Source of the DNA: Alphaproteobacteria bacterium
Lineage (GTDB): Bacteria > Pseudomonadota > Alphaproteobacteria > CBDDJK01
Length of the DNA: 64,000 bases
Reading direction: 5' to 3'
Assembly (NCBI GenBank): GCA_965229605.1
Contig: OZ245892.1
Span: 1,911,238 to 1,975,237, forward strand
Part shown: positions 4,026 through 55,032 of the stretch, one piece after another
How positions within the stretch are numbered: position 1 is the stretch's first letter
How the letters are laid out: the number at the start of each line of letters is the position of its first letter
Notes under the pieces: generated by a model
Database searches by the model: none
Told to the model about the DNA's origin: nothing
The model's input: only the letters and a program-made list of their open reading frames with translations
Made by a program: the position numbers and the translations under genes

Positions 4026-6479
4026 CTAGCTACTGCGCAATTCCGAATTATGCGCCTTCTTGACCGCAGCCGCAATATTTTGTGTGATCTCCGCCAGTTC
4101 CTGATCCGTCAGCGACCGGGCAACCGGTTGAAGCGTGATTTCCAGCGCAAGAGATTTTTTGCCTTGCAATTCCTCGCCCCTATACACATCAAAAAGATGG
4201 ACATGAGTCAAGTATGTCCCGCCAGCCTCGCGCACAGTCGTTAGCAGCGATTCAGCCAAAACATCCTGATCAGCCACAAAGGCCAGGTCCCGGCGCACCG
4301 GCTGTAAATTCAAAAGCGCTAACGGCGGGCGGGTGCTGCCCTCTGTGCCAGACAATGTTGCAGTGGCTTGATAGAGCACATCCAGAAAGATTTCAAAGCC
4401 AACGGTGGCCCGGCGGATATCATGCTGCTTTAGAATTGAAGGATGAATCACCCCGAAACGGGCCAAAGTCTGATCCTGAAACAGGATAGAACCCGACTGG
4501 CCCGGATGATACCAGTCCGGGGCCTGGCTGGACGTGCGCAACTCGGCAAGCGGCAGGCCAAGCTCTGTGATAACGGCCAGAACATCGGCCTTTGCAGTTT
4601 CCCAGCTGACCTCTTCGGCTTTATGGCTCCAGTGGCGGCCTGCCCCTTGCAAGCCGCTGCGCACGCCGCTTATTTCTATCGCCTGTTTATCAGAGGCCTC
4701 ATCATGATAAACAGGCCCGGCTTCAAAGAGAGCCCCGTCCAGATAGCCCCGCGCTGCATTGCGGCCTATCGCCTGCAACAGATTGGGCAGGATGGAGGGC
4801 CGCATCTGCACAAGCTCGCTGGAGATCGGATTATGCACCCGCAGATTTTGCTGACCACCGCCAAACCGCTCCGCATCTTGCGTGGAAAGAAATGACCAGG
4901 TGACGGTTTCCAGCATCCCGCGCCCGGCCAGCAAGCGGGTTGCCTGCATCCGCTGCTGACGCGCCGGATCAGGGCGTGGGCCCGCCATGGATTCTTCTTG
5001 CCCTGTCTGTTTTTGAGGCGGCAAAGAAACAGGCTGAATATTGTCATACCCGTGAATACGCAAAATTTCTTCAATCAGACAGGCATCACTGACAATATCA
5101 ACCCGGTAGGTCGGCGGAATAACGCTAAAATGCGTATCCCCGTCCCGGGTGACTTCAAAACCAAGCCCGGTCAATATCTCTTGCGCCTGATCCGGGGCGA
5201 CCCGGGCGCCGCCATGGCTTTCCAGCCGATGAAGATCAAGGGAAATCGGTTTCTGCCGGTCTGGCAAGGTCCCGGCTGTGACCGGATATGATGTCTCCCC
5301 GCCACAAAGATCAAGAATCAACCGTGCGGCGACATCCAGCCCCCAGATCGCAGATTGCGGGTCAAGCCCGCGTTCAAACCGGTAGCGGGCATCGCTTTGC
5401 AAATTGAGAATCCGCCCGGTGGCGGCAACCGCAATCGGGTCAAAAAGGGCGACTTCAAGAAAGACCTCTTGCGTGTCCAGGGTGCAGCCGCTTTGTTCGC
5501 CGCCCATAATACCAGCCAGCGACACCGGCCCGCTTGCATCGGCAATAACCGTCATATCGGGGGCCAGCGCATAGGTCTGACCATCCAGGGCTTCCAGCGA
5601 TTCCTTCTGATCGGCAAAACGCATGGTCAGGGTAGGACCGGCAAGTTTTTGTGCATCAAACACATGAAGCGGACGGCCCAGATCAAAGGTCACAAAATTG
5701 GTGATATCGACCAGGGCCGAAATCGGGCGCAAGCCGATTGAGCGCAGCCGTTGTTGCAGCCAGGGGGGGGAAGGCCGGTTGCGCACGCCTTTAAAATGAC
5801 GCCCTGCCACATAAAAGCAGGATTGGCGGCTGCCGTCCGGCAGTTTCTTCTGATCCAGCGTCCAGCTGATAGGCGATGTATAGCTGCCGGGAACAGCGGG
5901 CGGGTCCAAAGGCCGCAGGGTGCCGCCATCAGCAGCTGCCAGATCACGGGCCACCCCGTAAACACTCAAGGCATCGGCGCGATTGGGCGTGGCTTTCATA
6001 TCAAAGACATGATCACGCACCCCGCTCCACTCCACATAACAGGCCCCAAGCGGCGCATCGGCAGGCAGGTCAATAATCCCGTCTGCATCTGATCCAAGGC
6101 CAAGTTCATCTTCGGAACAAAGCATCCCCTGGCTGGCTTCCCCGATAAACAGAGTTTCCTTGATATGCAGGTCCTTGGACGGGATATAGGCCCCGATGGG
6201 GGCCAGCACAGAGCGCATCCCCTTATAGACATTCGGGGCCCCGCAGACAATCTGGCGAGTCTTTCCATCGCCAGCATCAACCTGACAGAGGCTCAGCTTT
6301 TTCGATCCCGGATGCGGGGCCACCTCAACCAGTTCAGCAATCACCAGCGGCGCAAGATCAGCAAAAATCTCTTCAACCGATTCAACCTCCAGCCCGATAG
6401 ACGTCAGCTTTTGCTGAACAGCCTTTGGCGATAAAGCCGTGTCAATATGGGTTTGCAGCCAGTGATGGGTGAATTTCAT
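4026..6479 (-). CDS. pheT: Phenylalanine--tRNA ligase beta subunit
   Basis: 817 aa. N-terminal MKFTHHWLQTHID, B3/B4 and anticodon-binding regions, located directly downstream of pheS. Confidence 0.9.
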   Translation of the reverse strand: MKFTHHWLQTHIDTALSPKAVQQKLTSIGLEVESVEEIFADLAPLVIAELVEVAPHPGSKKLSLCQVDAGDGKTRQIVCGAPNVYKGMRSVLAPIGAYIPSKDLHIKETLFIGEASQGMLCSEDELGLGSDADGIIDLPADAPLGACYVEWSGVRDHVFDMKATPNRADALSVYGVARDLAAADGGTLRPLDPPAVPGSYTSPISWTLDQKKLPDGSRQSCFYVAGRHFKGVRNRPSPPWLQQRLRSIGLRPISALVDITNFVTFDLGRPLHVFDAQKLAGPTLTMRFADQKESLEALDGQTYALAPDMTVIADASGPVSLAGIMGGEQSGCTLDTQEVFLEVALFDPIAVAATGRILNLQSDARYRFERGLDPQSAIWGLDVAARLILDLCGGETSYPVTAGTLPDRQKPISLDLHRLESHGGARVAPDQAQEILTGLGFEVTRDGDTHFSVIPPTYRVDIVSDACLIEEILRIHGYDNIQPVSLPPQKQTGQEESMAGPRPDPARQQRMQATRLLAGRGMLETVTWSFLSTQDAERFGGGQQNLRVHNPISSELVQMRPSILPNLLQAIGRNAARGYLDGALFEAGPVYHDEASDKQAIEISGVRSGLQGAGRHWSHKAEEVSWETAKADVLAVITELGLPLAELRTSSQAPDWYHPGQSGSILFQDQTLARFGVIHPSILKQHDIRRATVGFEIFLDVLYQATATLSGTEGSTRPPLALLNLQPVRRDLAFVADQDVLAESLLTTVREAGGTYLTHVHLFDVYRGEELQGKKSLALEITLQPVARSLTDQELAEITQNIAAAVKKAHNSELRSS

Positions 6480-14020: not shown

Positions 14021-14021
14021 G

Positions 14022-17320: not shown

Positions 17321-18337
17321 ATGACAAATCAGCATTTTAAGCTCAAGAAACAAGACATGGTCACCTATAAAAAAGATACCCGTAGAAAAGATAGTGGGGA
17401 TCGTCAGGCCCCTGTGCAGCTGGTGGCGATTGGCGAGGTCATGGCCGAGCTTTCAGACATGCAGGAACGCCCCCGGCAAGCGGTGAGTCTTCGCGGGCAT
17501 TTTGGCGGTGATGTCTTTAATACAGCGGTCTATCTGGCCCGTATTCTTTTGGAAAATACAACGCACAAAAGCTATTCGGTCGCTTTGGCCTCCCGGATTG
17601 GCGAGGACCCTTTCAGCCTTAAACTGCGGGCGTTTTTGCAGGAAACCGGCATTGACCAGTCCTGTCTTGTCACCGAACCGGGCGGACGGACAGGGCTTTA
17701 TCTGATTGAAATTGATAAAAAGGGGGAGCGGCGGTTTCACTACTGGCGCGGACAAAGCCCGGCCCGTTCCATGTTTCAAAAAAACATCGCACCAGAGACC
17801 GATCATCTGGCAGATTTTGATGTCTATTATATCAGTGCCATCAGCCTGGCGGTCTGGTCGCCGTCTGCGCGGGACCATATTCTGTCTTTTCTGGACCGCC
17901 GCCGACAGGACGGGGCACTGGTGGCCTTTGATACCAACTACCGCCCCGCCTTATGGGAAAACCCGGCAGTTGCCCGCACAGTGATTGAACAGGCCATGCA
18001 GGTTGCCAGCCTGGTCCTGCCTTCTCACGAAGATTTGATGAAAATCTATGAAACAGAAGATGAACCGGAAAAGCTGATAAAAAACATGCGGCAAATGACC
18101 AAAGCAGATATTGTCCTGAAAACAGGCGGCGGCGCGATTTATACAGATATTGACAATATTCCGTTTACTTTTACGCCGGATCAAATCCCGCAGCCGGTTG
18201 ATACCACCGGGGCTGGCGATTCCTTTAATGCCGCGCTGATCGCTGCTCGGGTGATGGGAAAAAGCCTGAGCGAACAGCTGGAGGCCGGTCATCGTCTCGC
18301 CGCACAAGTGATTATGCACCCCGGCGCCATAATATAG
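17321..18337 (+). CDS. PfkB-family sugar kinase, 2-dehydro-3-deoxygluconokinase-like
   Basis: DTTGAGDSFNAALIAA (the PfkB anion-hole motif) and a GG dipeptide. Confidence 0.7.
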   Translation: MTNQHFKLKKQDMVTYKKDTRRKDSGDRQAPVQLVAIGEVMAELSDMQERPRQAVSLRGHFGGDVFNTAVYLARILLENTTHKSYSVALASRIGEDPFSLKLRAFLQETGIDQSCLVTEPGGRTGLYLIEIDKKGERRFHYWRGQSPARSMFQKNIAPETDHLADFDVYYISAISLAVWSPSARDHILSFLDRRRQDGALVAFDTNYRPALWENPAVARTVIEQAMQVASLVLPSHEDLMKIYETEDEPEKLIKNMRQMTKADIVLKTGGGAIYTDIDNIPFTFTPDQIPQPVDTTGAGDSFNAALIAARVMGKSLSEQLEAGHRLAAQVIMHPGAII

Positions 18338-18488
18338 GTGCTATAATATAAGCACAATTAGACAAATTTATTGACGTTTATCCCTCGTTCACCTAAAAAT
18401 TCATGCATGATTAATATAGAAAAATTTTTGATTTTGAAGAGTTGTTAAATGTAAGAATTTGGCAATGTAAAAATTTAATGGGCGGGCC

Positions 18489-19137
18489 ATGTCAGAACTG
18501 ACAATAGATATTTTTATGTGCCGAAGCAGGAGCCTTTAGCAAAATTGAAAGCCAACATGATGAGCATTCCCTCTTTGGCGTGACAGATGGCAAGGCCGTT
18601 GGCACCTATCTTGAACAAAAATTTCAGAAATTCCTTGCCAGAAAATACAGCTATATACCGTGAAGTTCTGCAAAAGGCATCGACTTTCCAGAATTGGGCG
18701 TTGACCTTAAAGTCACAAACATCAAACACCCTCAGTCTTCGTGCCCATATCGCTCGGCCAGACAGAAAATATACGGAATTGGCTACGGATTACTGGTTCT
18801 TTGCTATGAGAAAACTGATAATCTGGAAAATTCAACAACCAGGTTAAACATCATTCACACGATTTTCATCGATTCTGATCGCACAGCCGACTTTCAGACG
18901 ACATCAGGATTGCTCAGAATCCTTGAAAATGACGGAAATGAGGACGACCTTACAGGCTTCATGTTTGAGCGCAATTTTCCTATTGATGATATAGAGGCCG
19001 GGAATCTTGCGAAAGAACTTCTGCAAAATCCGCCTAAACTTGGATATTTGACTATTTCCAATGCTTTACAATGGCGTCTCCAGTACAAAAGAGTCCTCAC
19101 GGAAGCAGGGAATGTTTCTGGAATTAGAAGGTTGTAG
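18489..19137 (+). pseudogene. Decayed PD-(D/E)xK-like type II restriction endonuclease gene, cognate to the downstream methyltransferase
   Basis: One reading frame spans 18508-19137 with a single in-frame TGA at 18661-18663. It encodes ...FGVTDGKAVGTYLEQKFQKFL...GIDFPELGVDLKVT..., a plausible D...(D/E)xK nuclease core. This frame has no ATG; an ATG at 18489 lies in the -1 frame and would join after a one-base change in the T5 run at 18511-18515. The frame ends 3 bp before the methyltransferase start. Confidence 0.4.
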
Positions 19138-19139
19138 AG

Positions 19140-20597
19140 ATGATCCATCAAGTCGAGTTTGGGGACTTTCAAACATCCCGGGATTTGGCAGACCGTGTGT
19201 GTGAAAAGCTGAAAGAGGCAGGGCTTTATCCGACTTCTGTCATTGAGCCAACGTGCGGTCTTGGGAATTTCACTGAATCAGCACGAAAGTCCTTTTCCAC
19301 GGCTAGAGAATTTCGCGGGTTCGAGATTGATCCTGATTACGTTAACAGGGCCAGACAACGGTTTGCCGATGATAATTCGGTAGAGATCATCGAGTGCGAT
19401 GTCATGCAAGAGGGATTGTTTCCAACAAACAATATACCCAAAAACTGCTTAATACTTGGCAACCCGCCATGGACAACCAATTCAACGATGGGATGCATCA
19501 ATGGGGCCAATCTGCCTGAAAAAAGTAATATTTACGGATTGCAAGGGCTAGATGCTCTTACAGGCAAGAGTAATTTTGATATTTCTGAATGGATGCTGAT
19601 GCATTTTACAAAGCTGCTGATCGGAACCGATGGCTATCTGGCCATGCTGGTTAAAACTTCTGTGGCACGGAAAATCATCAACCACCTCTTCAAAAGCAAG
19701 ACAAGCCTTCGGCATATTTCGCTGCATAAAATTGATGCTATGATTGAGTTTAATGTGTCTGTAGATGCCTGTTTACTCATTGTTTGTTTTTCTGCAACAA
19801 AGGCGAGTGTGCTCAGAAGCTGCAAGATTTATAATAGCCTTGAACAAAAGGCCCCCGCTGCTGTGATTGGATGGCGGCATGGAAAACTTATTTCTAACCC
19901 GGATACGTTTGATCGACTTTCAGACAGGTATCTCGCCTGCTCAAAACCGGAAAACCCCTGGAGGTCGGGAATGAAGCACGATTGCTCCAGAGTCTTCGAG
20001 TTGAAAAGGCAGGGCAACAGTCTGGTTAATGGCTATGGGGAACCTGTGGATGTTGAAGAGAAATTTTTGTTCCCTCTCATGAAAGGCACCGATCTGGCCC
20101 TCACAAGAGATATTAGCAGATGGGTAATATGCCCGCAAAGAGAAGTCGGTGAAAATACAGAACGGCTTAAAATTCTTGCGCCAAAACTATGGGCATATCT
20201 TGAATCATATTCAAAAGAACTGGCGGCACGGCGAAGCAGGATTTATATGAACAAGCCGAATTTCTCAGTTTTTGGAATAGGCTTATATTCTTTTCAACCT
20301 TGGAAAATTGCCATTTCTGGACTCCATAAATCATACGGCTTCAGACTGGTGGAGCCATACGAAAACAAACCTGTCCTTTTTGATGACACCTGTTATCAGA
20401 TTTCTTTTGCAGACAAGGCAAAGGCAAAGCGTGTCTTTAAGAAAATTATGTCACAGCCCTGTATTGAGTTTCTGGAATCAATGACTTTCTGGGATAATAA
20501 AAGGCCTATTACAGCCGAAATATTAAATCTGCTCTGCATTGACGACTATTCGCAGCCGCATTTCAATTTGCCTATGGGTGAAAGCCAGAGTGTATAA
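19140..20597 (+). CDS. N6-adenine-specific DNA methyltransferase, gamma class (M.TaqI / Eco57I-like)
   Basis: Motif X (FQTSRDLADRVCE), motif I (VIEPTCGLGNF) and, about 60 aa later, motif IV (LILGNPPWTT), in the order seen in M.TaqI. The C-terminal half would be the target-recognition domain. A GAAGG ribosome-binding site precedes the ATG. Confidence 0.75.
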   Translation: MIHQVEFGDFQTSRDLADRVCEKLKEAGLYPTSVIEPTCGLGNFTESARKSFSTAREFRGFEIDPDYVNRARQRFADDNSVEIIECDVMQEGLFPTNNIPKNCLILGNPPWTTNSTMGCINGANLPEKSNIYGLQGLDALTGKSNFDISEWMLMHFTKLLIGTDGYLAMLVKTSVARKIINHLFKSKTSLRHISLHKIDAMIEFNVSVDACLLIVCFSATKASVLRSCKIYNSLEQKAPAAVIGWRHGKLISNPDTFDRLSDRYLACSKPENPWRSGMKHDCSRVFELKRQGNSLVNGYGEPVDVEEKFLFPLMKGTDLALTRDISRWVICPQREVGENTERLKILAPKLWAYLESYSKELAARRSRIYMNKPNFSVFGIGLYSFQPWKIAISGLHKSYGFRLVEPYENKPVLFDDTCYQISFADKAKAKRVFKKIMSQPCIEFLESMTFWDNKRPITAEILNLLCIDDYSQPHFNLPMGESQSV

Positions 20598-20638
20598 CCG
20601 TTCCATCCAAAAGATAAACGATGTATCAGCGCGATCAG

Positions 20639-21073
20639 CTATTGCCTGAGTTCACGCGGCTGTTTCACCCGGATCAGATAGCCTTCTTTAAGTTTGAAAG
20701 AAAACTCGGCACTGCCCCAGGGTGGATATCTCACATCAGAACATTCAAAGCCGCTATCCTTGATTTCGTCTCTGATATTGCCAAGGTCTGATACGCAGAT
20801 AATAATCTCAATCCCCTTACCGCCTTCACCCGGTTCTGGCAGTACCCAATGGCTCTCACTAGATTTATTCTTCGATGGAGAAAATAACATCAGGTCGAAG
20901 TGAGCCGGATGTCTCAACTGCCGCCAGCCAGGGTTTTCTTCAATCAATGAAAAGTTGAACAGCTTGCAGAACAAATGCGCATATTCGTCATAATGCTCCG
21001 TATAAAGTTCGATTTGCACCATTTCCCGCTCGTGCTTGTCCGCAAGCGTATGAATTGATGTTGTATTTGTCAT
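20639..21073 (-). CDS. VOC (glyoxalase / bleomycin-resistance) family protein
   Basis: 144 aa with ...GIEIIICVSDLGNIRDEIKDSG... and a C-terminal PWGSAEFSFKLKEGYLIRV, the pattern of a VOC beta-alpha-beta-beta-beta module. Low GC like the islet. Confidence 0.45.
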   Translation of the reverse strand: MTNTTSIHTLADKHEREMVQIELYTEHYDEYAHLFCKLFNFSLIEENPGWRQLRHPAHFDLMLFSPSKNKSSESHWVLPEPGEGGKGIEIIICVSDLGNIRDEIKDSGFECSDVRYPPWGSAEFSFKLKEGYLIRVKQPRELRQ

Positions 21074-36953: not shown

Positions 36954-37306
36954 GCGGACGTGGTGGAATGGTAGACACAAGAGACTTGGCAACCATGTTG
37001 AGTGCCTTTTGGGAAACCTTGAGGGTAGAACTGCTCAAATTCGGGGAAACCTTAACAGGTGAGGCTGATGGCAATCCCGAGCGAAGCCCGCAAGTAGCTG
37101 TTATATATAGCCGTTATGCGTGTAACAGTTATGGGGAACGTGTAGAGACTAGACGGGCAGCACCTACGGCACAAGCCAGGGTGAAGGGATAGTCCAGACT
37201 ACAAACGCGGCAGGTTGATGACTTGTGGCGGCAGTGAAAGCTGTGGTGGTATGAAAATCTCTCGATCGATATGATCGTGCGGGTTCGAGTCCCGCCGTCC
37301 GCACCA
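36954..37306 (+). tRNA. tRNA-Leu(UAA) gene interrupted by a group I intron. Exon 1 is 36954-36987, exon 2 is 37254-37306, and the CCA is encoded.
   Basis: Acceptor GCGGACG/CGUCCGC, D-arm UGGUGGAAUGGUAGACAC, anticodon stem AGAGA/UCUCU, loop C-U-U | A-A-A-A, a long variable arm CGAUCGAUAUGAUCG, and T-arm GCGGGUUCGAGUCCCGC. It is near-identical in layout to bacterial tRNA-Leu(UAA). Confidence 0.8.
36988..37253 (+). ncRNA. Group I self-splicing intron (266 nt) in the anticodon loop of tRNA-Leu(UAA), between U34 and A35
   Basis: The exon ACUU can pair with intron GAGU (about 37000-37006), giving a U.G at the 5' splice site. Core P7-like elements are present: GAGACUAGACGGGCAGC and GGAUAGUCCAGACUACA. 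The terminal nucleotide is G (37253). No ORF lies inside. Confidence 0.7.
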
Positions 37307-50018: not shown

Positions 50019-51274
50019 GCTATTTGGCGTTTGTCATCAATCACCTTGGCCTCTGAAGACAGGTCAGGGGCGGGCAGCGGTGTGATGGAAACCCGGCAGA
50101 AATCGCGTAATTTCTGGGCAAGATGCGTGGATAGTGAATCATCAAAAGCCGCTCCATCGCGCATTTTTATGTGCAAAACCGCGTGATCATGCCCGTCCTT
50201 TTCAGTAACAACCAGCGAATATTGCTGAATATCCGCGCTGTCGGCAAGGGCGCGCTGCACCTGGCTTGGATGAACAAACATGCCCCGGATTTTGGTAATC
50301 ATATCCACCCGGCCCAGCCAGCCTTTCAGCATCCGGTTGGTCCGCCCGCAGGCCGATGACCCCGGAAGATAAGCCGATAAATCGCCGGTGGCATAACGAA
50401 TAAGCGGAAAATCCTGATGAAAAACTGTGATCGTGACTTCGCCAACCGCGCTTTCTCTGGTTGAATCCGGGGCAATCACGCTGCCATCATTCGGGTCAAG
50501 CAGTTCGACAATACAATCTTCAGCAATAATCAGGCCCGGAGACGGGGTGTTATCCGGCAAAAGGCTTTCAAAAGCAATCAGCCCGCAATCGGCGGCGGCA
50601 TAGGCTTGCAGGGTGATGATTCCGCGTTCGTGATACCAGTTGCGCAAGGCCGGGAACAGCGGCCCGCCCGAGACCACTGCGCGTTTGAGCGAAGGCACAG
50701 CAAGCCCGGTTTCATCGGCCTTCTCAAGGATAAGCTTCAAAAAATCGGGTGTGCCGGTATAGGCTGTGGCCTGATAATGGGCGGCGACTTCAGCTTGAAG
50801 CGCACTATTGCCGACCCCGCCAGGAATAACGGCGGCACCAAGCGCAAAGGCCCCGCCTTCAGCCATAAAGCCTGCCGGGGTCAGATGATAGGAAAAACAG
50901 TTAAGCAGAATATCCGCTGCACCAATCCCGGCGGCAGAAAGGGCCTGGGCCATCCGCCACCAGTCGCCGGGGCCTCCGGGTTCATAGATGGGACCCGGTG
51001 AAGCAAAAAGACGCTGAAACTGTGCGGGTTTCTGTCCATTCAGCCCGCCAAATGGCGCAGCTGCAGCCTGTATAGAAGTCAGATCGGCTTTACGGGTAAC
51101 CGGCAGGGAAAGCAAAAGATCTTCGCCCGCAAGATCAGCTGCAACATCTGCAAAATGCGCCCGGTAATAGGATGAAGACTGCCGCGCAGCCGCAACAGTT
51201 TCAACCAGTCGTGCATAATTTTTCGCCGCGCGCTGGTCGGGGCTCTGTCCTTCACTACTTTGGGAAAAAGCCAT
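50015..51274 (-). CDS. Phenylacetate-CoA ligase (PaaK)-like adenylate-forming enzyme family protein
   Basis: 419 aa with a PaaK/F390-synthetase-like N-terminus and an AMP-binding core. Its stop overlaps the aminotransferase stop in convergent orientation. Confidence 0.5.
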   Translation of the reverse strand: MAFSQSSEGQSPDQRAAKNYARLVETVAAARQSSSYYRAHFADVAADLAGEDLLLSLPVTRKADLTSIQAAAAPFGGLNGQKPAQFQRLFASPGPIYEPGGPGDWWRMAQALSAAGIGAADILLNCFSYHLTPAGFMAEGGAFALGAAVIPGGVGNSALQAEVAAHYQATAYTGTPDFLKLILEKADETGLAVPSLKRAVVSGGPLFPALRNWYHERGIITLQAYAAADCGLIAFESLLPDNTPSPGLIIAEDCIVELLDPNDGSVIAPDSTRESAVGEVTITVFHQDFPLIRYATGDLSAYLPGSSACGRTNRMLKGWLGRVDMITKIRGMFVHPSQVQRALADSADIQQYSLVVTEKDGHDHAVLHIKMRDGAAFDDSLSTHLAQKLRDFCRVSITPLPAPDLSSEAKVIDDKRQIA

Positions 51275-51292
51275 ATCTTTTGTCCCGAAAGA

Positions 51293-51769
51293 TCAGGCCG
51301 CGTGGATATGGACCTGCGGGGCGGCGTTGGTAATCAGGCCGCAGACCTGCGGCGCGGTCAGGCCTTCAGCCCGCAACTGACCGTTCAGCTCCTTATTGCG
51401 GAACAGCCGGGAAACCGCCGCCAGAGCCTGCAAATGGTCCGATCCCGATGACTCCGGAGTCAAAATAAGAAAAATCAGATCAACCGGACAATCATCCAGC
51501 GCATCAAAATCAATCGGCTTGTCCAGCTTGGCAAATATGCCAATCAACTGATCCAGCTCGGCAAAACGACCATGCGGAATGGCAATGCCGCCGCCTATGC
51601 CCGTGCTGCCCAACCGCTCGCGCTCCAGAAGCCGGTCAAAAACAGTGCGCTGATCAATCTTCGTCAAAGATTGAACATGACCAGACAATTCCTGAAGAAG
51701 GGCCTTCTTTGATCGTACCTTTATATCAACCAATATGCCCGATTCATCAAGAAACTCGGATATCTGCAT
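51293..51769 (-). CDS. ptsN: PTS IIA-like nitrogen regulatory protein EIIA-Ntr
   Basis: GGGIAIPHGR active-site histidine region. Positioned downstream of hpf. Confidence 0.8.
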   Translation of the reverse strand: MQISEFLDESGILVDIKVRSKKALLQELSGHVQSLTKIDQRTVFDRLLERERLGSTGIGGGIAIPHGRFAELDQLIGIFAKLDKPIDFDALDDCPVDLIFLILTPESSGSDHLQALAAVSRLFRNKELNGQLRAEGLTAPQVCGLITNAAPQVHIHAA

Positions 51770-51947
51770 AGTTTGTCTCCTAAAACCGTTATACGCTGTA
51801 TCACTCTGGACGGGTGGCTCAGCACACCTGCCCTGATTTTTCTGTTAAGAAAATCGTGATGTGTCTGCCCCACATCGCTTTGCGTTTTTCAAGCGCTCAA
51901 TCCGTCATCGCCCTTTATTACGATGTTAATCTGGTAAGCTCCCAGAA

Positions 51948-52538
51948 CTAGTCCGCCAGACTCTCGGCAGGCCCAACCGGGTCAACCCACGCAATATTCC
52001 CATCCGACCGGACATAAACCATATTCATACGACCCGACTTCGAATCCCGAAACATAAGAGCAGGAACCTGCGCCAAATCCATGCGCATCACCGCTTCTCC
52101 TACGCTCAGGCTTTCAACCGTGCCCTTGGTCTCAGCCACAATAACCGGCGCATTCTGATCTGGAAGCTCCTCAGCCTCCTCGTCTGGCTCCTTTTGCAAA
52201 ACATAATGAGCCGAAGGCCAAATCTCTTTATCCGCAAGCGCCTGCTTGTGATCCCGAAGCCGACGCTTGTAACGACGCAAACGCTTCAGCACATGCTCTT
52301 CAGACTCAGCCAGGGCCATATAGGCATCCCGCCCCTCCCCATGGCCTTGAACCATCACACGACGCGAAACATGAATCTGGATGTCCGCAACAAAAAGATG
52401 ACCACGCTTTGAAAAAGTGACCGTCGTATCCGTCACATCATCAAAATATTTGCCAATCAGATCAGGAAGACGGCCTTCAACATGCCGCTGCAAGGCTTCA
52501 CCAATATCAACCTGTTTACCCTGAACCGTTAATCCCAT
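51948..52538 (-). CDS. hpf: Ribosome hibernation promoting factor, long form
   Basis: N-terminal sigma-54 modulation / RaiA domain MGLTVQGKQVDIGEALQ plus a C-terminal dimerisation domain. Confidence 0.8.
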   Translation of the reverse strand: MGLTVQGKQVDIGEALQRHVEGRLPDLIGKYFDDVTDTTVTFSKRGHLFVADIQIHVSRRVMVQGHGEGRDAYMALAESEEHVLKRLRRYKRRLRDHKQALADKEIWPSAHYVLQKEPDEEAEELPDQNAPVIVAETKGTVESLSVGEAVMRMDLAQVPALMFRDSKSGRMNMVYVRSDGNIAWVDPVGPAESLAD

Positions 52539-52859
52539 TCGTGCGTATCCCTATTGCGTATCTATAGGCTTTAGTCTGTGTATCGGTTTTGAAGATATGG
52601 CTTATCAGCAGTTTTCAGCGACAACTTGTGGCGAATAACATTTATTATCATTCACCTTTCAGGCGTGTTTGTCGAGTCATTTCAACAGGAATGGGTCAGA
52701 TATTTATCTTGATCAATTTTATCCTGTTATTCTTATGTTGTTTTATTTATTGGAGGCTCACATTATCGGGGCTCAATAGCCAAGCCTGGCAATAGCGTCA
52801 AGGCCTGTTTCGCTTTTCCACAGTTTCCACTTTTTCCCAAATTTCAGTTTTCACCGCTA

Positions 52860-53372
52860 TTAGACAGCAGAGCCTTTGGACAGTAGAGCTTGGGCAGTTG
52901 GGGTAAATTCGCGGACCAGCCCCTGGTAGAGGTCTTTTTTAAACGGCACGATCAAATCAGGAATCTGCGCCAGCGGCACCCATTTCCAGGCTTTAAATTC
53001 GGGCTGTTCCGTGTCCAGATTGATGTCACTATCGGTGCCTTCAAAGGCCATGGCGAACCATTTTTGCCGTTGTCCGCAATATTTCCCGTCCCAGATTTTT
53101 CCAATCAGATGGTCAGGCAAATCATAGGTATGCCAGTCCTGGCTTTCTGCAAGAAGGCGGGCTTTGCGGGTGCCGGTTTCTTCTTCAAGTTCCCGCCAGG
53201 CAGCGGCAAGCGGGTCTTCGCCCGGGTCAATGCCGCCTTGCGGCATTTGCCAATAGTCATCTTCGTTGGCGGAAATTTCCCCGTCCAGGCGGGAGCCGAC
53301 AAAAACCTCGGCCTGCTGATTAAAAAGCATGATCCCGGCGCAAGGCCGATAGGGGAGATGGGGTCGTTTCAT
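52860..53372 (-). CDS. rppH: RNA pyrophosphohydrolase (Nudix)
   Basis: Nudix box GGIDPGEDPLAAAWRELEEETG. Confidence 0.8.
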   Translation of the reverse strand: MKRPHLPYRPCAGIMLFNQQAEVFVGSRLDGEISANEDDYWQMPQGGIDPGEDPLAAAWRELEEETGTRKARLLAESQDWHTYDLPDHLIGKIWDGKYCGQRQKWFAMAFEGTDSDINLDTEQPEFKAWKWVPLAQIPDLIVPFKKDLYQGLVREFTPTAQALLSKGSAV

Positions 53373-53385
53373 TAAACCATCTTGA

Positions 53386-55032
53386 TTATGAATTGGCCAC
53401 GCCGCCGACTTTTATGTCATTATCGGGGACAAAGGCCGGGCGACCTTTGGCATGGCGGCGCAGGATCACCGCGCTTAATGGCGCAAGAGCCAGCTGTCTT
53501 TCTGGCAAATAGCGCGACCATTCGCGGATTCGGGCCACATTATTAGGCAGCGCTTCGACAAATAAGATGAAGTCGCCTTGTGTCTGTGCGGCGACTTCGG
53601 CTTCGGCAAGGCGTTGGATGAAATTGGCCCGGCTCAAGGCGGTGCGGATATACATATCGGCATCGGATACAGGAATATCGGCTTCCCAGGCCATGGCGAG
53701 GATTCCCTGCGCGCGTTGAGGCTCAATCCCGACCAGGCCAACGCCACGTTTGCTGAGATCGGAAATAATCGGGTCCAGCTGCTGGCGCGAGCGATAGAAA
53801 ACGCCGTCATTTTGAATAAGCAAGGCCGTATAGCCTGCCATTTTTCCCAGCACACTGTGCAGGCGTTGCAAATTCTCTTCACGCCCGATGTTGCGATTAA
53901 GGGCAAAGGGCCCGGCATCGCTTTCAGGATATTGGCGGGGCTGGATAGGCAGTTTTAAAAGGACTTCATGGCCGCCAGCCCGGGCTTCTGCCATCCAGCG
54001 TCCAAGCTGCTGGGCATGAGGCACAAAGCCAAGACTGACTGCCCCGGGCAAGCGCAAGGCCAGTTCCATCATATTGCTGGATTGACCCAGATTGACCATG
54101 ACCACAGCGATTGGGTTATGACCGGGAGGGGTGGTTGCCGGGCGGGCATATTGCTCCAGAGGCCGCTTTCCATCCTGCCCGATGGTGGGCAAGGTGCCAC
54201 GCGGTGTGACCTCGATAAGGGTCTGGGCCGGAACCGGAGACAATTTGTTTTTATAGGGGTCTTCGACATCAAGGCTGGCTTCAAAGCCGGGTTCCTGTTC
54301 AAGCCCGCTGATGCTGGTGGTCCCGCGCTCTGGCTCCAGAGCCGGTTGTGGTTCGGGCTGAATATCAGATTGCTGAGCAGCTTGCTCTCCATCTGTTCCC
54401 AAAGACGCTTGGGCTACGGTTGTTTCAGGAGACGGTATTTCAGACTCAAGCAGTTCGGAAGAAGGTTGTTGCGCGGTATCCTGATTATCAGGTGCCTGAT
54501 CTTCAGGATTAGGCTGATTGTTGCGGACAATTTTGATCTGGCTGGGATCAATCTGAATGGCCGGAGGCGCTTCTTCATCGACCCCGCCAAACAGAGCCAA
54601 TGCGCCGATTGAAAGAACAGAGAGTGTGAATGTGCTATAGGCCAGAATTAGTCCGATCCCGATCTTGTCAATAAAACGGGCGGCACCTGATTTATTGGCC
54701 TCGGCATGTTCAGCAAGTTTGTCGGGATCAAACAGGATATCCGGCTGGATAAGCGGATTTTCGCGCGTGGCATCGCCTCCGCCTGCTGCATTCAAAAAAG
54801 GCGAAATATCGTTAGGATCGTCAGCATCCGGCGGTGCCCCACCTTCTATATTCCCCATACTTTCAGGCGCATTTTCAGGGACAGGTTGATCGGGGGTAGT
54901 TTGCGGACCTGCCCCAGCTTCTCCAGTAACAGGTTCTTCGGTAAGAGGTTGGCCGGTAAGAGGCTCTACGGCTGGCGGTGAACGCTGAATATCCCCGGAC
55001 GCACCCGCATCAAATGGAGACGGCATCTTCAT
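53386..55032 (-). CDS. Divergent polysaccharide deacetylase (YibQ-like) family protein with a long Pro/acidic N-terminal region and a TM anchor
   Basis: C-terminal YibQ-like domain (VNLGQSSNMMELALRLPGAVSLGFVPHA...). Conserved position after ctpA. Confidence 0.55.
   Translation of the reverse strand: MKMPSPFDAGASGDIQRSPPAVEPLTGQPLTEEPVTGEAGAGPQTTPDQPVPENAPESMGNIEGGAPPDADDPNDISPFLNAAGGGDATRENPLIQPDILFDPDKLAEHAEANKSGAARFIDKIGIGLILAYSTFTLSVLSIGALALFGGVDEEAPPAIQIDPSQIKIVRNNQPNPEDQAPDNQDTAQQPSSELLESEIPSPETTVAQASLGTDGEQAAQQSDIQPEPQPALEPERGTTSISGLEQEPGFEASLDVEDPYKNKLSPVPAQTLIEVTPRGTLPTIGQDGKRPLEQYARPATTPPGHNPIAVVMVNLGQSSNMMELALRLPGAVSLGFVPHAQQLGRWMAEARAGGHEVLLKLPIQPRQYPESDAGPFALNRNIGREENLQRLHSVLGKMAGYTALLIQNDGVFYRSRQQLDPIISDLSKRGVGLVGIEPQRAQGILAMAWEADIPVSDADMYIRTALSRANFIQRLAEAEVAAQTQGDFILFVEALPNNVARIREWSRYLPERQLALAPLSAVILRRHAKGRPAFVPDNDIKVGGVANS

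Follow-up and report, generated by a model that had tools for sequence, protein, structure and literature searches.

The isoschizomers of the type II restriction endonuclease NspV include AsuII, BstBI, SfuI and Csp45I. NspV recognises TTCGAA (PMC2779907), and sequence analysis has placed the NspV subfamily in the PD-(D/E)XK superfamily (PMC2441816). Among methyltransferases, M.TaqI (TCGA) and M.BseCI (ATCGAT) are gamma-class enzymes, in which motif I is followed by an NPPW motif IV. Concerning the decay of restriction–modification (R–M) systems, solitary methyltransferases that arise in this way consist of an intact methyltransferase beside a disabled endonuclease; to our knowledge, an R–M system can be left without killing the cell only if restriction is lost ahead of modification (post-segregational killing). 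According to a pan-genome survey, solitary methyltransferases rarely arise by such in-place decay (PMC4176335).

We analysed a stretch of 64,000 nucleotides of alphaproteobacterial DNA, which is referred to as the window. It contains a two-gene R–M module (18338–20634, + strand; boundaries good to a few bases), whose endonuclease is 59–61% identical to the homologues of Stigonema and Nostoc. With the R.NspV family (Pfam: PF27258, NCBIfam: NF052465) it has in common a full-length match to the family profile, a length of ~215 aa and a methyltransferase gene directly downstream. The window copy differs from R.NspV in having a nonsense codon and a frameshift, and in its host, an alphaproteobacterium and not a cyanobacterium. 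Very probably, this is an NspV-family module whose endonuclease was killed recently (GGA to TGA, then the addition of one T) and whose methyltransferase is intact and now solitary.

The endonuclease pseudogene covers 18489–19137 (+). The ORF check of the window finds one long frame on the + strand (18508–19137), which is bounded upstream by a TAG (18505–18507), closed by a TAG (19135–19137) and interrupted only by a TGA at 18661–18663. The ATG at 18489 is in a neighbouring frame, which reaches a stop after 16 codons (16 aa). A run of five T is located at 18511–18515; with one T removed, the ATG at 18489 is joined to the long frame and the gene comprises 215 codons. The initial annotation had given this frame, the TGA, the T run, the upstream ATG and a fusion product of about 215 aa, and every one of these coordinates is correct. 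The ATG of the methyltransferase (19140) is found two bases past the endonuclease stop. The GC content is 0.40–0.47 over about 18200–21000 and 0.51–0.59 in the flanks; the low-GC segment also covers orf144, the gene beyond the methyltransferase. In a functional type II R–M system the endonuclease frame is uninterrupted; here it is broken twice.

The repaired 215-aa translation matches NF052465 (type II restriction-modification system restriction endonuclease; curated cutoff 290 bits) over its full length, with 323 bits and an E-value of 5e-97 (residues 4–212 on model positions 1–209 of 209), so the earlier proposal of a restriction endonuclease holds. A score of this size is far beyond chance. 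The aligned region already starts before the T run, so that the reading with a frameshift is supported by the profile itself. The closest homologue is P0001, an intact protein of 215 aa with 98% identity to the repaired one, which is matched by PADLOC REase_II (E 1e-98); a single ENA metagenome assembly (ERZ25074195) is the source of P0001 and of the other members of its 90% cluster. There are more than 8000 homologues, and those listed carry the Pfam domain PF27258 ‘NspV’. Membership of the NspV family of type II restriction endonucleases is demonstrated by these profile matches and by DNA alignments to nine syntenic strains. A Pfam search with a model set without NspV returned only a weak MutH match, a PDB sequence search with the endonuclease gave nothing meaningful, and a search of the GTDB species representatives gave nothing closer to the endonuclease gene than 69% identity, so that the species, with this gene, is absent from that set.

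The structure predicted for the repaired protein, a check that had been proposed for the fused product, has a PD-(D/E)XK nuclease fold. The best structural neighbour is R.NlaIV (PDB: 6qm2), which shares 13% identity and no detectable sequence relationship with the window protein and has another recognition sequence. The profiles of MutH and Sau3AI give weak local matches over residues 46–83 of the repaired endonuclease (12.8 bits vs a cutoff of 23 for Pfam MutH, 14 bits vs 300 for Sau3AI); at the sequence level the protein is not a member of these types of PD-(D/E)XK nucleases, and its recognition site and role differ from theirs. Residues D65, D72 and K74, within GIDFPELGVDLK (window 18682–18711), are invariant in 39 homologues. 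Since their spacing equals that of the MutH active site, D65-x6-D72-x-K74 is likely to be the catalytic motif. The PD-(D/E)xK arrangement suggested at first is kept, with a slightly different composition: TDG (residues 32–34) had been paired with DLK, and D65...D72-x-K74 is the likelier set. The codons of this motif are still intact and are located downstream of both lesions. Gly58 is also invariant in the 39 homologues.

For the comparison of the lesions we used nine syntenic module-bearing contigs of the same uncultured alphaproteobacterial species; these come from strain-rich metagenome assemblies, in which consensus mosaics are possible. The syntenic order is fur, znuA, leuA, pfkB, R, M, orf144, tilS, ftsH. 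The LeuA protein P0254 is identical to that of the window; exact look-ups of this protein and of the window methyltransferase gave no record. LeuA is only about 70% identical to that of named genera such as Pacificispira, which makes the host an uncultured alphaproteobacterium. In the DNA alignments the T run has four T in all nine relatives and five in the window alone, at codons 9–10. Codon 58, an invariant glycine, is GGA in eight of the nine relatives and TGA in the window and in contig L085. The latter has the TGA and no frameshift (T4), and its gene call (P0256, 57 aa) is identical to the N-terminus of the window protein. Contig L087 carries the local haplotype of the window, yet it has GGA at codon 58. 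From the TGA with T4 in L085 and the GGA on the shared haplotype in L087 it follows that GGA changed to TGA first and that the T was added later. As judged from these alignments, both lesions and their order (TGA before +T) are demonstrated, and the initial proposal of inactivation by an in-frame TGA and a frameshift in the T run agrees with the GGA and T4 of the relatives. Also, a scan of JGI metagenomes with a pattern over the T run that allows T4 or T5 gave no match.

A third strain, L086, has a separate knockout: a GAT to CAT change at an invariant residue (D33H) and a one-base deletion after codon 59 (contig positions 6001–6192, aligned to window 18586 and 18666), which leave a product of 63 aa (P0259). 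Its methyltransferase is intact, with a dN/dS of 0.63–0.9 vs its closest relatives, a value based on very few changes.

It had been left open that both lesions are errors of sequencing or assembly and that the organism has a live R–M system. Homopolymers are the commonest error class of long-read assemblies, and the extra T is indeed a homopolymer change private to the window. The TGA, by contrast, is found also in the independent contig L085 (coverage label 70x), and because the flanks of the two contigs differ by 3–6% it cannot be put down to a sequencing error. Errors do not typically turn an invariant glycine codon into a stop by substitution. The neighbouring genes in 12 kb are intact, and the one single-base indel private to the window is in a gene that was already dead. 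Across these 12 kb in the ten strains, private one-base indels are the +T of the window and the −1 of L086, both in the endonuclease gene, and one in L088 (position 15509), which is apparently intergenic. This concentration in the endonuclease gene argues for real mutations over random assembly error. It also speaks for a gene that has lost its protection or against which selection acts. For the lesions as a pair, an artefact is extremely unlikely. The extra T is either a later lesion or an assembly error; in both cases the TGA would suffice to inactivate the gene. The only other private indel of the window in the 12 kb is a deletion of 10 nt at 14021/14022, in the spacer of two convergent genes.

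Reversible on/off switching by slippage in the T run was the other reading mentioned at the outset. Changes in homopolymer length near the 5′ end, of the kind seen here in a restriction gene, are usual in phase-variable type I and type III R–M genes. Such switching goes with a long variable tract; the present one has only four or five T, and none of the nine relatives departs from T4. The TGA is separate from the tract and cannot be reverted by slippage, and L086 was hit at a non-repeat site. Phase variation thus retains hardly any probability.

The homologues have glycine exactly at the position of the TGA, which would suit a recoding of this codon as Gly, Trp or Sec together with a programmed +1 frameshift at the T run. 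TGA is the leakiest stop codon, and genetic code 25 reads it as glycine. In the window, TGA ends 20 of 50 long ORFs; as a common stop it indicates the standard code, which excludes code 25 and recoding. In relatives from the same species these positions read GGA and T4, and two recoding events in one gene of 650 bp, in one strain only, are implausible. We therefore give recoding practically no chance.

The preferred explanation is thus decay of the endonuclease gene by two mutations. In a first step, a G-to-T change turned the invariant Gly58 codon GGA into TGA, and later one T was added to the T4 run at codons 9–10. With either lesion, no product with the whole D65/D72/K74 active site is left. 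The longest remaining ORF encodes 147 aa from a TTG at 18694 (18694–19137) and starts after D65. The methyltransferase would keep methylating the recognition site, and unmethylated DNA would no longer be restricted. With an intact methyltransferase and a dead endonuclease, the cell is expected to be modification-positive and restriction-negative. This combination fits the idea that restriction is lost first. The loss may have relieved the cell from self-restriction, or have lowered a barrier to the exchange of DNA with co-existing module-less strains, which would supply unmethylated DNA; neutral decay is also possible.

Concerning the age of the null allele, 26 of the about 30 codon differences from the intact allele of L001–L004 are synonymous (dN/dS 0.04), including all 19 downstream of the TGA. 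The two null copies (window and L085) differ at only two positions. As these differences are ones between functional haplotypes, the null allele as such is young, and on these substitution patterns the knockout of the endonuclease is recent. The synonymous pattern downstream of the TGA (19 of 19) could also be expected if the C-terminal ORF had been kept for a function of its own, e.g. in binding DNA or in regulating the methyltransferase. The pattern is, however, fully explained by a young null allele, as the 19 changes separate two functional haplotypes; in addition, no gene is called there in L085, and the TTG start is inside the active-site motif, with D65 missing. A retained function of this ORF is very unlikely.

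The partner methyltransferase (19140–20597, +) is an intact ORF of 485 aa, which matches PADLOC MTase_II PDLC03310 with 520 bits (E 2e-156, model positions 8–470 of 475). In the Pfam/NCBIfam search of the methyltransferase no model reached its cutoff. Motif I (EPTCGLGNF, residues 36–44, 19245–19271) is located upstream of motif IV (NPPW, residues 108–111, 19461–19472), the order that characterises gamma-class N6-adenine methyltransferases and that is shared with M.TaqI and M.BseCI. These two are its only PDB sequence matches; the matches are weak (E 0.036 and 0.4) and concern the catalytic domain, while the C-terminal target-recognition part is unrelated.

The assumption that the endonuclease is cognate to this methyltransferase is borne out by distant genomes. 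In 79 of 80 distant loci (L005–L084), which represent many phyla, a methyltransferase homologue is found directly downstream on the same strand; in the single exception the contig ends 87 nt past the endonuclease gene. The same gene pair is present on Nostoc and Aeromonas plasmids. Based on this pairing and on the plasmid pairs, the endonuclease and the methyltransferase are cognate. Across the 80 loci the identity to the window proteins is 50–69% for the endonuclease and 33–44% for the methyltransferase; the endonuclease is therefore better conserved across phyla than the methyltransferase, the reverse of the usual type II pattern.

The methyltransferase ORF has 485 aa in all ten strains. Its window-specific substitutions are found in variable columns only: of the 92 columns conserved to at least 90%, the consensus is kept in 85, and the seven departures are common to strains with an intact endonuclease. 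Relaxed selection on the window methyltransferase was considered and rejected, as its dN/dS is 0.18–0.30 vs 0.13–0.28 among strains with an intact endonuclease. With its ORF intact and its partner disabled, the methyltransferase is, by its sequence, functionally solitary (‘orphan’), and the picture of decay towards an orphan methyltransferase drawn in the initial annotation corresponds to what is found, an intact 485-aa methyltransferase that adjoins a disrupted endonuclease. Its expression and activity presumably continue, and early termination upstream could lower the expression. A promoter and terminator scan of the module found nothing above the shuffled expectation.

By analogy with NspV, we infer that the system of the window is specific for TTCGAA. 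In 609 kb of carrier loci, none of the 64 palindromic hexamers is as depleted as TTCGAA (64 occurrences vs 188–212 expected), a depletion that fits this specificity. With the R–M genes masked it is still first (52 vs 135–145 expected), by a small margin (0.36–0.38 vs 0.37–0.46 for the next hexamers). The depletion of TTCGAA in the window itself was rejected as evidence: there are two sites, the maximal-order expectation is only 5.9, and many palindromes are avoided. These include GCCGGC (3 vs ~52 expected, maximal-order), CCGCGG (1 vs 24), GCATGC (1 vs 18), CAATTG (1 vs 12) and CGGCCG (6 vs 27), which suggests pressure from several other restriction systems. Regarding the methyltransferase genes themselves, TTCGAA is present within those of five strains with an intact endonuclease (L001–L004 and L088, position 7403 in each) and of the null strain L086 (position 7402), and those of the window, L085, L087 and L089 are without it.

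All three states of the module are present in the population. Counting the contigs examined and the window, the endonuclease is intact in seven and null in three (two independent origins), and the module is absent from four (L090, L091, L093 and L094). At these empty sites pfkB is followed by 14–17 nt and then by orf144, with no R–M genes; what is absent is the whole of ~2.3 kb, which elsewhere separates the stop codon of pfkB/kdgK (+) from that of orf144 (−). Four empty sites in the same species mean that the module is an insertion/deletion polymorphism. At the junctions (window 18338 and ~20634) no integrase, transposase or clear target duplication was found. A short direct repeat, ATAATATA(G/A), is present at the left junction of the window and is not found in the other occupied strains. 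The gene orf144 (20639–21073, −; 144 aa) was considered as a part of the module and rejected, as it is present at the empty sites. It has a sub-threshold glyoxalase/VOC match (16.6 vs 20.6 bits), shares the low GC of the module, is found in all strains and is under strong purifying selection (dN/dS 0–0.08).

The two TGA alleles are located in a tract that is nearly identical in the window and L085 (18296–19227); over its 932 bp they differ by one substitution and one indel. The tract takes in the upstream spacer, the null endonuclease gene and 88 nt at the start of the methyltransferase gene: there are no differences between 18295 and 18511, the next is at 18525 and the following one at 19228. 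Outside it, leuA, pfkB, tilS and ftsH differ by 3–6% between the two contigs; for contrast, 58 differences are counted in the 1017 bp of pfkB and 39 in the 1458 bp of the methyltransferase gene. Mosaicism is also seen among the intact alleles of different strains; for example, L087 matches the window haplotype in the 5′ half only. These patterns point to frequent recombination at the locus, or to mosaics of the assemblies.

The shared null tract of 0.9 kb, the independent loss in L086 and the four module-less strains together raise the tentative idea, which we consider rather unlikely, that the TGA allele is selectively favoured and moves by homologous recombination between diverged co-living strains. 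If this were true, a single natural population would display all the steps by which an R–M system is gained, spreads, is disarmed and is lost, and restriction would be costly where unmethylated close relatives are the main DNA donors.

Overall, the locus represents a known enzyme family in a decayed state and follows a known evolutionary pattern, and as such it is unsurprising to the specialist. It differs from the surveyed solitary methyltransferases in that one chromosomal site in one species shows the module intact, absent and, in two independent cases, decayed, and it provides a within-species example of a solitary methyltransferase that arises in place by the loss of restriction, seen twice. 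The co-existing absent, intact and null strains could serve to measure the cost and turnover of R–M systems. For annotation, 18489–19137 corresponds to an NspV-family endonuclease pseudogene and the 485-aa protein to a functionally solitary methyltransferase.

Two further regions of the window are described for completeness. A segment of 2.1 kb (51274–53386) has no ORF of at least 200 aa and no Rfam or tRNA match. At 36954–37306 (+) there is a tRNA-Leu(UAA) whose anticodon loop is interrupted by a group I intron of 266 nt (about 36978–37209), which matches Rfam RF00028 with 50 bits, exactly the gathering score (E 1e-9). ARAGORN finds this tRNA with the intron option only, and its default run gives no tRNA in the window. 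The combination of tRNA-Leu(UAA) and a group I intron is classically cyanobacterial or plastid, and finding it in an apparent alphaproteobacterium may merit attention.
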